The notes under the pieces were generated by a model, which saw nothing but the letters and a program-made list of their open reading frames with translations, did no database searches and was not told the origin of the DNA. Shown here piece after piece: positions 291 to 38,743 of a stretch of 64,000 bases of DNA. The stretch is from Escherichia virus TH44. The translations under genes were made by a program, and so were the position numbers. The stretch lies in sequence record MT446415.1, one strand, 5' to 3'. Position 1 is the stretch's first letter. Every line of letters starts with the position of its first letter.

Positions 291-956
291 ATGATTGACA
301 AGAACTACATTGAGGAAATTCGTGTCCTCGAGAAAAAAGAAGCCAAAGAAAAATTAGCTGAATATGCAGCATCACTTGGTGTTGATGTTAAGAAAACAAA
401 AACCTTTGATAATATGTTGGCTGACCTGGAAGCAGGACTTAAAGCATTTGCTGACATGCCTATGCCTGATGATAATGAAGGCCTGAGCATCACTGACCTT
501 ATCGATGCCGATGATGAATTGTCAGGTGCTAAATTTGATGGCGATGAGTCAGCTAAAGAAGAAGCTAAGCTCTTATTTGATGCTCCAACCGAAGCAAAGG
601 TTGAAGTTGTTGAAATCGAAGAACCAGTTGTTTTGGTCGAAGAAGATGTTCCTTTTGTCGAAGAAAAGTTCGAAGCAGCTGTTGCTAAGGTTATCGAATC
701 TGAAAAACCTGTATTTGCTCTGCCAAAAAACTTTAGTCCAAATCTTATGCTTATTGGCAAGAACCCTGGATTCTGTACTGTTCCATGGTGGATTTATCAG
801 TGGATTTCTGAGACTCCGGATTGGAAAGAACGTCCGACTAGCTTCCAACATCCTACTGCACACCAAACACTATTCAGCTTGATTTATTACATCAATCGTA
901 ATGGGTCTGTTCTAATACGAGAAACTCGTAACTCATCTTTTGTCACTTTAAAATAA
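291..956 (+). CDS. inh: Inh-like protein (prohead protease inhibitor position), acidic N-terminal half
   Basis: 221 aa ORF with GAGG RBS; immediately upstream of hoc as in T4; identity assigned by position and composition only. Confidence 0.55.
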   Translation: MIDKNYIEEIRVLEKKEAKEKLAEYAASLGVDVKKTKTFDNMLADLEAGLKAFADMPMPDDNEGLSITDLIDADDELSGAKFDGDESAKEEAKLLFDAPTEAKVEVVEIEEPVVLVEEDVPFVEEKFEAAVAKVIESEKPVFALPKNFSPNLMLIGKNPGFCTVPWWIYQWISETPDWKERPTSFQHPTAHQTLFSLIYYINRNGSVLIRETRNSSFVTLK

Positions 957-965
957 GGGTTTATT

Positions 966-2378
966 ATGGCTTATACCGTAGCTATTGCTCCTTTGGCGGC
1001 TACGGCCGTTATTGGAGCAACAACCAATTTCACTGCAACCGGCTCTGGCGCTGCAGCTGAAGGTGTTGAATCATTTGTATGGACCGTTAATGGCGTTCCT
1101 CAATCTTCTGTGACTGCAGCAATGGCTTATGTCGCTGTTGGTCCAGCAGGCAGTAAGACTATTAAAGTTGTTGCAACCACCACTCCAGCAGAAGGTGAAC
1201 CGGAAACTGCTGAGGCTGAGACAACTTTAACTATCCAGAATAAAACAATGCCTGCTATTACATTGACTTTAGACCCTGCCTCTGTTACTAAAGAAGTGGG
1301 ACAATCTCAAGTTGTTACTGCTAACGTGACGGGTGCTCCTTCTGGTGCAACAATCACTTACGTTTGGAAACGTAACACTAGCGTAATCGCAGGTCAAACC
1401 GGTAAAACTATTACCGTAACCGAAGCGGCGGCAGCAAATTATACATTGAACTGTGAAGTTACTGTTTCTGCACCCGATTATAATAATGGTACTGCAACTA
1501 AAGGAGCTGCGGTATCTTTTGTTAAGAAAACTATGACAGGTGTTTCCGTTACTTTAACGCCCGCCTCAATTAGTACAGAGAAAGACTCACCTGCACAGTT
1601 TAAAGCGGATGTAGTCGGCGCTCCGGTCGGCGTAAAGGCAACTTATTCTTGGAAGAAAAATGGTTCTATTATTCCAGGCGAAAGCAGTAATATTCTTGCT
1701 GTTGATACGTCTACAATAGGTTCTTACTCTATTGAAGTTTCGGTACTCCTAACAGGTGCGGATTATAATGATTTAACCGTTACCAAAACAGGAAGTGTAG
1801 CAATTACTAAAAAGACTATGACAGGTGTTTCCGTTACTTTAACGCCGGCTTCTATTACCGTCTCTGAAGGACTCCCAGCTTCTTTTAAAGCTACCGTAGC
1901 CGGCGCGCCTAGTGGTGCTACTTTTGCATATTCTTGGAAGAAAGACGGTTTAGCTGTTGCTGGCACCACGGATACCCTAGCAATCGATACAAGCGCTGAA
2001 GGTTCACAGGTTATTGAAGTTTCTGTTGTGGTTTCGGCGACTAATTACAACCCAGTGACTGTCAAAAAAACTGGTAATGTAACAGTCACCGCTAAAGTCG
2101 CTCCTGAACCAGAGGGCGAACTACCTTACGTTCATCCGCTACCAGTTCGTAATTCAGCTTATATCTGGTGTGGTTGGTGGGTTATGGATGAAATCCAGAA
2201 AATGACTCTTGAAGGCAAAGACTGGAAAACCGATGACCCTGATAGTGATTTCTATCTCCATCGTTATACTCTTCAAAAAATGATTGCCGATTATCCAGAG
2301 GTCGATGTACAAGAATCCCGTAATGGATATATTATCCATCGTTCGGCTCTTGACGCAGGTATAATTTATTTTTACTGA
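966..2378 (+). CDS. hoc: Hoc head outer capsid decoration protein with extra Ig-like domain
   Basis: 470 aa; C-terminus PEPEGELPYVHPLPVRNSAYIWCGWWVMDEIQKMT...YPEVDVQESRNGYIIH matches recalled T4 Hoc capsid-binding domain; repeated Ig-like modules. Confidence 0.9.
   Translation: MAYTVAIAPLAATAVIGATTNFTATGSGAAAEGVESFVWTVNGVPQSSVTAAMAYVAVGPAGSKTIKVVATTTPAEGEPETAEAETTLTIQNKTMPAITLTLDPASVTKEVGQSQVVTANVTGAPSGATITYVWKRNTSVIAGQTGKTITVTEAAAANYTLNCEVTVSAPDYNNGTATKGAAVSFVKKTMTGVSVTLTPASISTEKDSPAQFKADVVGAPVGVKATYSWKKNGSIIPGESSNILAVDTSTIGSYSIEVSVLLTGADYNDLTVTKTGSVAITKKTMTGVSVTLTPASITVSEGLPASFKATVAGAPSGATFAYSWKKDGLAVAGTTDTLAIDTSAEGSQVIEVSVVVSATNYNPVTVKKTGNVTVTAKVAPEPEGELPYVHPLPVRNSAYIWCGWWVMDEIQKMTLEGKDWKTDDPDSDFYLHRYTLQKMIADYPEVDVQESRNGYIIHRSALDAGIIYFY
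1531..1847 (+). repeat. Internal direct repeat in hoc (Ig-domain duplication, about 285 bp period)
   Basis: 32-bp identical segment actatgacaggtgtttccgttactttaacgcc at 1531-1562 and 1816-1847; protein KKTMTGVSVTLTPASI occurs twice. Confidence 0.8.
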
Positions 2379-17261: not shown

Positions 17262-19568
<2,307 letters not shown>

Positions 19569-19572
<4 letters not shown>

Positions 19573-20444
19573 AGTGGTACCCTATTTTTTCTTGGGGCTG
19601 GCGGTGCTGGGTCAACCGGTACAGGAATATCCTGCGAATATGTTTGAACAGATTCACCTTGCCAGTCTTCTTGGTCGACGTCTCGTGGAACAGCTTCCGA
19701 GTCAACAGATTCGAAATTGCCCTCTGGTGCAAGCTCTCTGGAATTTGCAAAGAAGTCAAGATAGATAGTGCGGATTTCCCCTGCTACTTCCTTGACCGGT
19801 GGATATAACCAACCGTTGACTTCGAACATAATGGACCATTCGAGTCTACGGCGAGTCATTGCATCACCTTCAATTTGCTCATCCATAGCAATGGACTGGA
19901 GCACGATTCTTATATCACGTTCGAACGTAATTTCATTCGTATAAAGTTCAGTGATAGTTGTATTAAAATGTGGTTGGAAGTAAGGCATGATTTGTTCGAT
20001 AATCTGGAACATATCATCTTGATGCCTTGTATATATTCCAAGCTCGAAAATCATTTTGACCGGCACCGGAGAATATTGAGATATCTGCTTGCGAGGGTCG
20101 TTATTAGCAAATCGCGCCTGTGTGTGATTCTGGAGAGCCGTTTTATATTGCCCGTTATACATCAAGTCAACCATATGTAGGTTCATACGGGGCAATACGG
20201 TCTCGATTTTAGCCTTCTGAGCAGCACGTTCTTGTGGTGTCATGTCAGGAGTAGGTGTATTCTGAATAGCGGTCCATTTTCCAAGCTGCATCATGAATTT
20301 TTCTTTTGAAGCATAAGAAATAGGGACCTTAATATATTTAAGTCCAGTGTCTTCTCTGGTTCTGGCCACTTGTACATGGGAAAATAAATCGCCCATTAAA
20401 ACGATATAGCGACGCAGAGACGAATTATAAAAATGCCCAAACAA
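19569..20444 (-). CDS. 15: Tail sheath stabiliser/completion protein gp15
   Basis: 291 aa; [21 protein letters not shown] resembles recalled T4 gp15 N-terminus; initiator codon appears to be TTG with GGAGG RBS 5 nt upstream. Confidence 0.88.
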
Positions 20445-20456
20445 AGTAACCTCCAG

Positions 20457-20473
20457 GCGCCCAATTCGGGCGC
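20457..20473 (-). other. Hairpin GCGCCC-loop-GGGCGC in gene 14-15 intergenic leader
   Basis: 6-bp GC stem immediately upstream of gene 15 RBS. Confidence 0.4.
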
Positions 20474-20487
20474 ATTAATAAATGTAT

Positions 20488-21273
20488 TTATTCATCAAAG
20501 AAACTATCGTCAAAGCTATCCTGTTTTGCCTTCGGAGGAGCCTCAAGTCCACGACCATTCTGCACAAAATATGGTTTAACATATTCAGCTGCTTCTGCGT
20601 TAATCTCATCAGATTCTGCATAAGGGATATCGCTGATATCTGTAAGGCCATCAATATTGTGGATTGGTTGTAAATCGAGCTCGCTGAATTCTGAAATATT
20701 AATACCTTCATTCCGTTGCAATTCAGGTTTAAGTTCTTCCCCGGAGTAAATGTATTTGCTCGCGGTGATTTTACGAATGGCGTTTTGACCTACCTGATAG
20801 AATGGGTCGTAAGGTTGTACCCATGTAATTTCGAACAGGCTGTTATCAAGAGGGAAATAAATCAAATCCCCTGCAATAGGTTCAGTGCCATTACATTGAT
20901 GTTTAAACAGATTAGGGTTAATCGATATTGTGATTTCGTCATTCACAGTCATACCGAATTTACTAAAGATAGAACCATCACCCTGATAGGCGTCAAACGT
21001 ATCCAGATAACCTGCAAATTTCCATGCTTTATCGAATTTACTCTGGAGGTCTTCACCGAATAGCAAATCCGGTTTAACGAATTGTCTTGGGATATAATAG
21101 AGAGACATTCCACGCATCTGAATACTTTCGGCAACAATAGCATCAGCTAAAGTCTGGGTATTTTCATGATGCATAAAGTTTACATAAGGGTTCAATATCT
21201 CTGTAGCATTGGTATTGTCATACCCGGTCCCGTCTTCGAGCCGGGCGAATAATCTTGAGTCATAAGTAGCCAT
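20488..21273 (-). CDS. 14: Neck protein gp14
   Basis: 261 aa; between gp13 and gp15. Confidence 0.85.
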
Positions 21274-22211
21274 TAGCCCACCAATATAGGAGTCGGTGCA
21301 TCCAGCAAGTCAAGTTCCTCACGGAGACGTTCTTTTTCCATACGAGCTTCTTCGATTAAACGGACGCCATCAACCGTGGTACCACCTGGCATCATCATCC
21401 CCTGATGTTTAGCCAATACGTTGCCGTTAACTTCCTTAACGAGTGCCGTGGCATAGTCTTTCACCCAACGATTGTTGTATGCACCATCTTGAAGTCCAAG
21501 GTCCTCACCAGCTCTCATGCCGCTTATTCTGCGTGCCGGGTTATCCCACTGTGCGCCAGCATTCCACGGATTATCACAATCAGCCGAAGCAAAACCATAA
21601 CCAGCTGTATTGCCTACCATTGAATCCACACCGTTATATGATTTGGTATAAACTTCAATTACAATCACATCTCCCTGACGGAAGTTGCCCATAATTTTAA
21701 GTTGTTCAGTATCGTCATTATACCAGTAATCTGGCAGCGGAACCATCAGGTCTTGCATCATTGAACGGTATTGCATAAGCTGTGTAAAATAACCAAGGTC
21801 TGCACCAAAAGCATTTGGGCCAAAGCTGTTACATGAGCTACCCATTCCACCGTTAATCCCAGCAAGGCCCAGAACGAAATCTGTGAACCACGGATATGTA
21901 GCTTGTCCGTCCATTGAAGTTAATGAACCGACGTTAGTACGAATAATCTGCGTTACTGCAAAAATATTACGGCCTTTTAAATCGAAAACACCATCGCGGA
22001 ATTTCTGTTGTGAAACTTCATCATGGCCAATATAAAAAGCCTGATAACCTTTGTTATAACCATTATAGTGATATTCGCCATATAATTCTAATGCACGCTG
22101 GATGCAATCATAAACCTGTTCGGTCGTAACTTCGATATTCGTGATTGGCGCACCAAGACGACGAAGGATTGCATCTTTTAATTGTTTCGGGTTGTATGAT
22201 TCAGTTGCCAT
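21273..22211 (-). CDS. 13: Neck protein gp13
   Basis: 312 aa; between wac and gp14. Confidence 0.85.
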
Positions 22212-22229: not shown

Positions 22230-22237
22230 TATTTATA
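22230..22237 (-). promoter_or_regulatory. Late promoter TATAAATA for gene 13
   Basis: Reverse-strand TATAAATA between wac terminator and gene 13 RBS. Confidence 0.5.
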
Positions 22238-36381: not shown

Positions 36382-38124
36382 TTAGCCAATGTCAATCCTC
36401 GAACCATCAATAGTATATTGACCAGATGCAATAGAACTCATTGTTGACATTGTTTCGGACCAATTGCCAGCCACGGTCATATCAACGTTTCCATTAACGG
36501 ACCATTTGACATTACCATTTACCGTATAATCATGGTTACCTTCGACAAGAGTTTTTGCGTCACCTTTAACAGTTATTTCAGCATTACCTTCGACCAAAAT
36601 ACTTACATTACCTTTGACAATAATTGTACCGTCACCTTCAATGGTTTTGGTTTCATTCCCACGAATATGAATGCTTTCGTTTCCATCGGTCTGACGACGA
36701 ACGTTAGCCATATTATAATAGGTTTCATCACCACCAACGTTGACTTTATTATTACCGCCAACGTAAGTACTCGAATCGCCCTGGGTCATATAATAACCAT
36801 CAGCCACTGTCTTCGAAGTCTTACGACCGTCTGGTGCAACTTCCTCATAGGAACCGGTTGGATGAATCAGTCGATAACGTTCTTGTCCAGGGGTGTTATC
36901 AAATTCCTGAATATGACCGCCTTCAGTTTGCATTGTCTGCACGTAAGGATATTCGCCCTTGTAACTGGATTCTGGCTCTTTAAACAGAATCCTCGTATCT
37001 TCTGGAGTCCATGGGTCGGCTGGGTCAGAATTTGCAGGGGCTGCAAAGGTTTGAATCATCCTATATGAACGCCCTTTAAATGACCTTTCTTTAGGGGCCA
37101 TAATACCATATGATTCCATGTTACCTGTAAGGATAATCATTGATACCCTTGATGCACGGCCTTTAGTTTGGTTAAACCATACAGAATCACGAGCGGCATC
37201 AAATGCTTTCTTATAATCTCCAGCTAACATTGCAGCGAGCATCGTTTTAAATTTAGCAAGCCCACCCAATCCCATTTGGAAAGCCATGTTTTCAAGAGCC
37301 ATTTGTCTCGAACGGTTTTCTTTATTGTAAACTGGACCCACGACACTATGTCGACCTATATCGTTTTGCACTTTTTTAAGGTCTTCTTGGAATAATTTAG
37401 AGGCCTCGTCCATTGATATTGCACCAGGGTTACCTTTAACTTCACGGCCTATTTGATTAGATAATATTTTGTTTATCTGATTCATATCTCTAATAGGTTG
37501 TGGTGCAATCAAGTGTCCTATACCTATAGTAGGATAACCTTCGGTGTCCCAATATACTTTCAAACGAAGACCTTCATCACGGTGAAGCATATTTTCAATT
37601 GTGAAATTAGGATTATCATCTGGCTTAACTTGACTCAAATCAAGGCCATCGGGGTTAATACCAAGGTCAAGGTTTGCATCCTGAATTACGTTCGAAGTTG
37701 CATCATAACCGACCTCACCGCCTCGGTTGAGCGCAGCAGCATCATTACCTACATAAAGTGGATATTGTCCTGTGGGGTCAGAGAAGCCTTCGTTGGGATT
37801 TGCTTTTTGTCTTGAGGCTGAACCATATGTACCAAGGACTAATCCGTTAAGTTTCCACTTGTCTAAAAAGTGACCATACACTTGAGTCCCTGGCACCATA
37901 CCGGTCATTGCAGTTTGAATACCCGAAACTGATGCAGATGATGTTGGCATCAATACAGACATCCATGGCAGGTCTTCAGTTCTGATACCTTTTACAGGCC
38001 CTTGCGATTTCTCATATGGATGCATACCCCATACACGGACACGGACTCGACCTTGTTGAAGTGGGTCCATTCGGTCTTCGACAACACCGACGAACCAACT
38101 TACACTATCTGACATATTAATCAT
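36382..38124 (-). CDS. 5: Baseplate hub / tail lysozyme gp5 (OB domain, lysozyme domain, beta-helix needle)
   Basis: 580 aa; internal T4-lysozyme-like segment ENMLHRDEGLRLKVYWDTEGYPTIGIGHL with Glu/Asp/Thr triad; C-terminal VxGN octad repeats. Confidence 0.93.
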   Translation of the reverse strand: MINMSDSVSWFVGVVEDRMDPLQQGRVRVRVWGMHPYEKSQGPVKGIRTEDLPWMSVLMPTSSASVSGIQTAMTGMVPGTQVYGHFLDKWKLNGLVLGTYGSASRQKANPNEGFSDPTGQYPLYVGNDAAALNRGGEVGYDATSNVIQDANLDLGINPDGLDLSQVKPDDNPNFTIENMLHRDEGLRLKVYWDTEGYPTIGIGHLIAPQPIRDMNQINKILSNQIGREVKGNPGAISMDEASKLFQEDLKKVQNDIGRHSVVGPVYNKENRSRQMALENMAFQMGLGGLAKFKTMLAAMLAGDYKKAFDAARDSVWFNQTKGRASRVSMIILTGNMESYGIMAPKERSFKGRSYRMIQTFAAPANSDPADPWTPEDTRILFKEPESSYKGEYPYVQTMQTEGGHIQEFDNTPGQERYRLIHPTGSYEEVAPDGRKTSKTVADGYYMTQGDSSTYVGGNNKVNVGGDETYYNMANVRRQTDGNESIHIRGNETKTIEGDGTIIVKGNVSILVEGNAEITVKGDAKTLVEGNHDYTVNGNVKWSVNGNVDMTVAGNWSETMSTMSSIASGQYTIDGSRIDIG

Positions 38125-38735: not shown

Positions 38736-38743
38736 TATAAATA
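38736..38743 (+). promoter_or_regulatory. Late promoter TATAAATA for gene 4
   Basis: Plus-strand TATAAATA 29 nt upstream of gp4 ATG in divergent 53/4 intergenic region. Confidence 0.6.

Follow-up and report, generated by a model that had tools for sequence, protein, structure and literature searches.

Where does translation of gene 15, which encodes the tail terminator (tail sheath stabiliser) gp15, begin in a phage that has no ATG at the position where T4 starts this gene? The 64,000-nucleotide stretch of Escherichia virus TH44 analysed here (MT446415.1; hereafter the window) raises this question, as an earlier note on the locus had placed the start of gene 15 at a TTG codon. We re-read the frame and its surroundings, compared them with those of other T4-like phages, and asked how often gene 15 and its neighbours lack an ATG start.

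The gene 15 locus and its relatives

The product of the gene 15 frame aligned with T4 gp15 (3J2M/4HUD) over residues 1-285 to T4 1-271 in a phmmer search of the PDB (E = 7.5e-103). It matched the Pfam family PF16724, T4-gp15_tss, with residues 4-271 covering profile positions 1-244 of 245 (E 1.4e-100), and PHROG 227 from residue 1 onwards (E 4e-100). The gene order 13-14-15-16-17 is conserved, as annotated in VR7, SP18 and T4 (Table 1). Megablast of the locus returned 32 phages at 95-98.4% identity, all belonging to the VR7/SP18 group of the genus Gaprivervirus, with Yersinia phage vB_YenM_P8 as the best match. Judged by these matches, the source phage is a Gaprivervirus of the VR7/SP18 group, and the gene 15 product is an orthologue of the T4 gp15 tail terminator, with residue 1 aligned to residue 1.

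Table 1 Features of the gene 15 locus and of related loci. Positions are those of the window unless a locus or phage is named.
Feature	Position	Strand	Remark
Gene 13	21273..22211	minus	upstream on the same strand
Gene 14 (neck protein)	20488..21273	minus	upstream neighbour; 66% identity to T4 gp14
AATAAATA, late-promoter-like	20485..20492	minus	overlaps gene 14 stop codon; 7/8 match to T4 late-promoter core TATAAATA; lead only
Gene 14 stop TAA	20490..20488	minus	43 nt before the TTG, in another frame than gene 15
In-frame TAA	20477..20475	minus	closes the frame 11 codons upstream of the TTG; from translation
GC-rich hairpin GCGCCC-GAATT-GGGCGC	20473..20457	minus	6 bp; -12.4 kcal/mol; ends 2 nt before the Shine-Dalgarno sequence
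Predicted alternative fold	20436-20472	minus	GCCCGAAU pairs with GUUUGGGC
Shine-Dalgarno sequence GGAGG	20454..20450	minus	5-nt spacer TTACT (20449..20445) to the TTG
Gene 15 TTG, putative initiation codon	20444..20442	minus	homologous to the ATG of T4, JS98 and Gravdalen
Gene 15 CDS (gp15)	19569..20444	minus	291 codons including the TTG start
Arg11 codon of gene 15	20412..20414	minus	within the 16-residue stretch lost with a Met17 start
Met17 ATG	20396..20394	minus	first ATG in the gene 15 frame; start in several sister-phage GenBank annotations
Gene 15 stop TGA	19571..19569	minus	
Gene 15/gene 16 overlap ATGA	19569-19572	minus	gene 16 ATG at 19572..19570 overlaps gene 15 TGA
Gene 16 (small terminase)	19081..19572	minus	downstream neighbour; from the ORF list and the VR7 annotation
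Gene 17	17265..19097	minus	
TTG of the gene 5.1 homologue	~36389..36387	minus	GAGGATTGACA-TTG
Exact TATAAATA core, examples	22230-22237; 17262-17269	minus	
Exact TATAAATA core, example	38736-38743	plus	
Mob-like HNH/NUMOD3 insert at 14/15 junction	ZZ1-like (L083 1-504); Acj9; Dhaka-like contig L122		
Insert with GIY-YIG-like motif	L139		motif seen by eye; no Pfam match
CapR-domain 'endonuclease' insert	RB16/Lw1/leE; L187 (RB16) 384-1114		
MobE insert	RB43/Miller/Taquito; L186 (RB43) 522-1142		
Further 14/15 junction endonuclease insertion	L118		
Gene 15 loci listed for start-codon variation besides the window	L004, L015, L017, L021, L036, L040, L085-L089, L094, L095, L101, L103, L105, L106, L111, L113, L115, L117-L119, L186-L192		
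Records with probable gp15 mis-annotation	GQ981382, PP693301, MG696114, MK295204, MN709128, NC_049479, OL770262, AY967407, KM236237, PQ096441, PP174317, HQ698922		

Gene 15 very probably opens with TTG behind a strong Shine-Dalgarno sequence

On the minus strand, the start region reads TAA (the gene 14 stop)-ATACATTTATTAAT-GCGCCC-GAATT-GGGCGC-CT-GGAGG-TTACT-TTG-TTT-GGG-CAT. The earlier note had described, leaving the strand unstated, a frame that begins with TTG, carries a GGAGG ribosome-binding site 5 nt upstream, has no in-frame ATG before the preceding stop, and matches the N-terminus of T4 gp15 (MFGxFYNSS in the note, MFGYFYNSS in T4). Each of these observations was borne out: the open reading frame of 291 amino acids lies on the minus strand, the GGAGG is separated from the TTG by TTACT, a spacing within the range of 4-9 nt expected before a UUG start, and the alignment with T4 gp15 begins at the first residue. 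Translated in frame, the sequence upstream is Y*CARIGRLEVT; between its TAA and the TTG there is no ATG, GTG or TTG in frame, and the only near-cognate codons are ATT and CTG. The latter two, at -7 and -4 codons respectively, were rejected as starts because they lie inside or 5' of the Shine-Dalgarno (SD) sequence and hairpin and have no SD of their own.

The strength of the SD was assessed by pairing with the anti-SD at the 3' end of 16S rRNA. The 20 nt before the TTG formed a duplex of -10.0 kcal/mol, which is the minimum of the whole gene region (mean -2.0). Only 15 of 882 twenty-nucleotide windows reached -9 kcal/mol, approximately the number of windows able to contain one SD. The match at the TTG thus goes beyond a chance resemblance. 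The corresponding value before Met17, the first ATG of the frame, was +1.2 kcal/mol, that is, no SD.

A comparison with orthologues, proposed as a check in the earlier note, placed the TTG at the ATG position of most T4-like phages, and this alignment argues against a start at the downstream ATG. The homologous codon opens an ATG-TTY-GGN motif, with an SD before each, in T4T, JS98 (Dhakavirus) and Gravdalen (Winklervirus), and is ATG in 49 of the 71 IMG/VR loci encoding gp15 relatives. Within Gaprivervirus, the TTG was identical in all seven genomes examined (the window, P8, VR7, SP18 and L008-L010). A sequencing error or a pseudogene was rejected on the grounds that the TTG is found in these seven independent genomes as well as in other genera, and that the reading frame is intact.

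We infer from these sequence features, from the homology of position, from the constraint on codons 2-16 described below and from the SD-less Met17 that ribosomes start at the UUG, plausibly at an adequate rate. In this mechanism, the 30S subunit would be positioned by the strong GGAGG 5 nt upstream of the UUG, and initiator tRNA would decode the UUG as (f)Met. The product would be a full-length gp15 of 291 residues with an N-terminus co-linear with that of T4 gp15, which as a hexamer would cap the finished tail and dock it to the gp13/gp14 neck. The UUG would represent a one-base substitution of an ancestral AUG, fixed in the genus and made tolerable by the near-optimal SD. When the initiation region is optimised, UUG is reported to match AUG in vitro at 20-40 °C (PMC5499595), so that the GGAGG at 5 nt plausibly keeps output adequate here. 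Taken together, translation of gene 15 very probably starts at this UUG and yields the full-length protein.

The codons upstream of Met17 are under purifying selection

An alternative reading holds that gene 15 starts at Met17, giving a gp15 of 275 residues preceded by an untranslated leader. This is how the gene is annotated in the same genus for SP18 (GQ981382) and vB_YenM_P8 (PP693301), both at 275 amino acids, and in other genera for Konradin, Berthold, phiP4-3, SdyM_006, Miller and Taquito; Met17 is, moreover, conserved. However, codons 2-16, the 15 codons between the TTG and Met17, do not behave as a leader. They specify a near-invariant peptide starting FGH(F/W), and between lineages without the ATG they show a pS of 0.69-1.2 versus a pN of 0.06-0.24. 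Their synonymous sites are saturated, including amino-acid-preserving switches of Ser between TCN and AGY and of Arg between CGN and AGR, and there are no indels or stops in any lineage compared. The first 51 nt are identical in all Gaprivervirus genomes, and the evidence for coding constraint is that of the between-genus comparisons. This is the pattern of strong purifying selection on codons 2-16 in lineages without the ATG.

Structural data bear on the same stretch. In the T4 virion in situ, a salt bridge links R11 of gp15 to E227 of gp14 (PMC12929629), and both residues are conserved in the window, R11 in gp15 and E227 in gp14. A start at Met17 would therefore delete a gp14 contact, and would additionally remove Pfam profile positions 1-13. 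As T4 and most of its relatives begin with an ATG 16 codons earlier and no SD precedes Met17, we consider a start at this codon very improbable; the Met17 annotations look like the output of ATG-preferring gene callers.

A third reading combines the two sites, with the UUG giving full-length gp15 and Met17 a minor, N-terminally truncated isoform. Other late genes of T4 do have internal starts in frame, as annotated for gene 17 in NC_000866, and Met17 is nearly invariant, a property equally well explained if it is a structural residue. With no SD or other initiation signal before Met17 and no evidence found for two products, we give this dual use scarcely any credence and retain the UUG as the start of gp15.

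A TTG start for gene 15 is ordinary and not new, since the GenBank records of VR7 and RB16 already annotate it. In our literature search, we found no proteomic or N-terminal sequencing evidence for gp15 of the TTG-bearing phages and no paper linking gp15 and TTG, and the start of gene 15 goes unmentioned in two T4 reviews, on mobile elements and on comparative genomics.

Comparison with T4 and other phages

T4 gene 15 (PDB 4HUD, 3J2M; NC_000866 T4p161) is the same gene with the same neighbours, 13-14-15-16-17, and its product shares ~57% amino-acid identity with that of the window, co-linear from residue 1. In both phages, an SD and an intergenic spacer of ~41-43 nt follow gene 14, but T4 starts with ATG (AGGAG-AAGTC-ATG) where the window has TTG. 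The window protein is 19 residues longer than T4 gp15, owing to loop insertions and the C-terminus. A gp15 tail terminator is characterised as a tail-capping hexamer with gp14, gp3 and gp18 as partners; for the window, our check covered conservation of the R11/E227 pair.

Closest to the window among the annotated relatives considered is gene 15 of vB_EcoM_VR7 (HM563683, ADR32553.1) from the same genus. It has an identical start region, an annotated TTG and a product of 291 amino acids, with ~96% nucleotide identity over the locus and no relevant difference. In RB16 and vB_CsaM_leE (Pseudotevenvirus) and in IME523 (Kanagawavirus), which are lineages independent of Gaprivervirus, the corresponding codon is likewise a TTG and is annotated as the gene 15 start. 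The first two have an endonuclease gene whose end lies 2 nt upstream of this codon, whilst the window is without such an insert. A further group, comprising RB43, Miller, Taquito, Acj9, the ZZ1-like phages and phiP4-3, differs from the window in having ATT behind an SD at the homologous start. Initiation at AUU has a precedent in E. coli infC.

Downstream, genes 15 and 16 overlap as ATGA in the window, whereas they are 8 nt apart in T4. This overlap suggests translational coupling, by which gene 16 could be influenced as well if the UUG alters translation of gene 15. Coupling of gene 15 to gene 14 was rejected in view of the 43-nt gap, the differing frames and the hairpin between them.

Annotation of gp15 in GenBank records

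In at least ten GenBank records of T4-like phages, gp15 is too short by 16 to 65 residues or too long (accessions of probable cases are listed in Table 1). Probable mis-annotation at Met17 was seen in SP18, P8, phiP4-3, SdyM_006, Berthold, Konradin, Miller and Taquito; RB43 gp15 is annotated at the GTG of codon 29 and AC4 gp15 at the GTG of codon 66, and W16 gp15 is annotated 20 codons too far upstream. We attribute the mis-annotations to gene callers having avoided TTG or ATT. Separately, gene 15 of the ZZ1 record is frameshifted when compared with genomes nearly identical to it. The main value of the present analysis is one of annotation hygiene, the correct gp15 product being one of 291 amino acids: a truncated gp15 drops the neck-tail contact R11 and spreads into protein databases and structure predictions.

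Over a 49.5-kb stretch, the VR7 annotation has 58 coding sequences starting with ATG, three with TTG (a mobB-like ORF, gene 5.1 and gene 15) and one with GTG. In the window, the gene 5.1 homologue carries the same TTG as that annotated in VR7, preceded by GAGGATTGACA, and is probably a second TTG-initiated late gene.

Gene 15 recurrently lacks an ATG start among T4-like phages

A non-ATG start of gene 15 was found in about a dozen T4-like lineages. Codon 1 is TTG in Gaprivervirus, Kanagawavirus, Lazarusvirus, the Gelderlandvirus-like contigs (L094/L111), L095 and RB16/Lw1/leE; it is ATT in ZZ1/W16-like phages, Acj9, L113, phiP4-3/SdyM_006 and RB43/Miller/Taquito, and GTG in L103. Three motif scans of IMG/VR, which did not select for any start codon, returned genuine gp15 genes starting with ATG on 66 contigs, with TTG on 12, with ATT on 5 and with GTG on one.

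For comparison with other genes, we applied a conservative criterion, scoring a gene as ATG-less when no in-frame ATG occurs from the upstream stop to the first aligned residues; this criterion was used for the neighbours because the N-termini of genes 14 and 16 vary in length. By this measure, gene 15 was ATG-less in 16 of 73 unbiased loci (14 of 56 unique sequences), whilst genes 10, 11, 12, 13, 14, 16, 17, 18 and 19 were so in none of the 8-46 loci available for each. Gene 9, wac and gene 20 yielded one doubtful case each. In the homologue of gene 20, the portal gene, on the Lazarusvirus contig L106, the frame contains neither ATG nor GTG nor TTG from the preceding stop to the point where the alignment begins, and this alignment runs from query residue 1 at 66% identity. 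The start may again be non-canonical, or the alignment may be at fault.

Grouping gp15 at 90% protein identity gave 26 clusters with ATG only and 11 with a non-ATG member, three of them polymorphic. In neighbour-joining bootstraps, Gaprivervirus and Kanagawavirus were sisters in only 6% of replicates and Kanagawavirus grouped with ATG-bearing contigs in 89%. The low support for a Gaprivervirus-Kanagawavirus pairing suggests that the start-codon changes were mostly independent. SD pairing was somewhat stronger in non-ATG than in ATG alleles of gene 15, at -9.0 and -7.5 kcal/mol, respectively (p = 0.016, with no correction for phylogeny). None of the non-ATG alleles occurred where the gene directly adjoins or overlaps the stop of gene 14. 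If the pattern holds, it would provide a natural AUG/UUG/AUU/GUG allele series of one essential late gene.

Homing endonuclease genes at the gene 14/15 junction

At least six lineages carry insertions of 600-800 nt between genes 14 and 15 (Table 1), and the stop codons of the inserts lie 1-3 nt before the gene 15 start. Across the Pseudotevenvirus genomes, insert and start codon corresponded in seven of seven cases, those with MobE having ATT, those with the CapR-domain endonuclease TTG, and those with no insert ATG. Over all lineages, in a small and phylogenetically structured sample, the start is non-ATG in four of six with an insert and in about eight of 32 without. Sequence differences near the junction were also clustered. 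MobE-bearing Miller and insert-free CfP1 differ at four positions in the first 600 nt of gene 15, two of which are nt 3 (ATG to ATT) and nt 6, and between the endonuclease-bearing contig L122 and JS98 there are five differences in nt 6-15, with the next at nt 126. For a pair of genomes without an insert, the first mutual difference is at nt 63. Clustered changes at the start of gene 15 would be the signature expected of target-site immunity or of co-conversion at a homing junction.

These observations raise the question of whether the TTG of the window, instead of having arisen by neutral drift, is a scar, a resistance allele or a relic of homing-endonuclease activity at the 14/15 junction. 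Since fMet is inserted at every start codon, a change from ATG to TTG or ATT is silent in the protein. Under this hypothesis it would alter the endonuclease target silently, at the edge of a highly conserved coding target, and would be fixed as an immunity allele or spread by co-conversion with the endonuclease cassette. The way in which start codon tracks insert type in Pseudotevenvirus, the placement of the inserts directly before gene 15, the concentration of the Miller/CfP1 and L122/JS98 differences near its start, and the loss of ATG in 16 of 73 gene 15 loci and almost never in the neighbours are all consistent with such an origin.

Closer to the window, however, the evidence points the other way. 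Its 43-nt spacer between genes 14 and 15 contains no endonuclease gene or ORF, and all 32 close relatives are co-linear with it and likewise without an insert. Relative to JS98, changes in Gaprivervirus are not concentrated in the first 15 nt of the gene (4/15 vs 7/36). Eight non-ATG lineages have no insert, and two insert-bearing lineages keep ATG. On balance, we regard an endonuclease origin of this particular TTG as unlikely. The hypothesis concerns where the TTG came from and is compatible with translation of gene 15 from the UUG, as favoured above.

Were it true, start-codon identity would be a 'synonymous site' exploited in conflicts between phages and selfish elements. It would also account for the lack of ATG in about one fifth of the gene 15 alleles of T4-like phages, when neighbouring late genes almost never lack it. 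If the pattern holds, a connection of start-codon turnover with free-standing homing endonucleases becomes open to test. Of the results presented here, the repeated loss of AUG at gene 15 and its association with endonuclease insertions are the only ones that might be worth following up.

The junction in RB43 has a further peculiarity. At L186 1134-1142 the sequence is TAG-AAA-ATT, with the mobE stop in frame with the gene 15 ATT and one codon removed from it. Initiation at this ATT may occur by termination-reinitiation, judging from the arrangement of the two codons, and read-through of the mobE TAG would fuse MobE to gp15.

Elements of the gene 14/15 spacer

In most lineages, the place of the GC-rich hairpin upstream of the SD is taken by a hairpin unrelated to it in sequence and frequently bearing a UUCG or GNRA loop, and 35 of 59 unique upstream regions had a minimum free energy of -8 or lower. 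The hairpin of the window was rejected as an intrinsic terminator, having no T-run and not being flagged by a terminator scan. It may stabilise the 5' end of a late transcript or protect the 3' end of the message for genes 13 and 14.

An alternative fold was also predicted, in which GCCCGAAU, comprising the 5' arm and loop of the hairpin, pairs with GUUUGGGC, which consists of the G of the start codon and codons 2-3. We rejected an RNA switch that sequesters the start codon: the fold reaches -16.6 kcal/mol (-12.4 for the simple hairpin), which is not significant against shuffled sequences (z = -1.5). Its conservation does not extend beyond the genus.

An exact T4 late promoter is absent before gene 15, where AATAAATA matches the core TATAAATA at seven of eight positions; an ATAAATA recurs upstream of the hairpin, at the same place, in most lineages. 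Elsewhere in the window, the exact TATAAATA core occurs 19 times against 5.1 expected, and its strand follows gene orientation, all copies being on the minus strand to the left of ~30 kb and on the plus strand to the right of ~38 kb.
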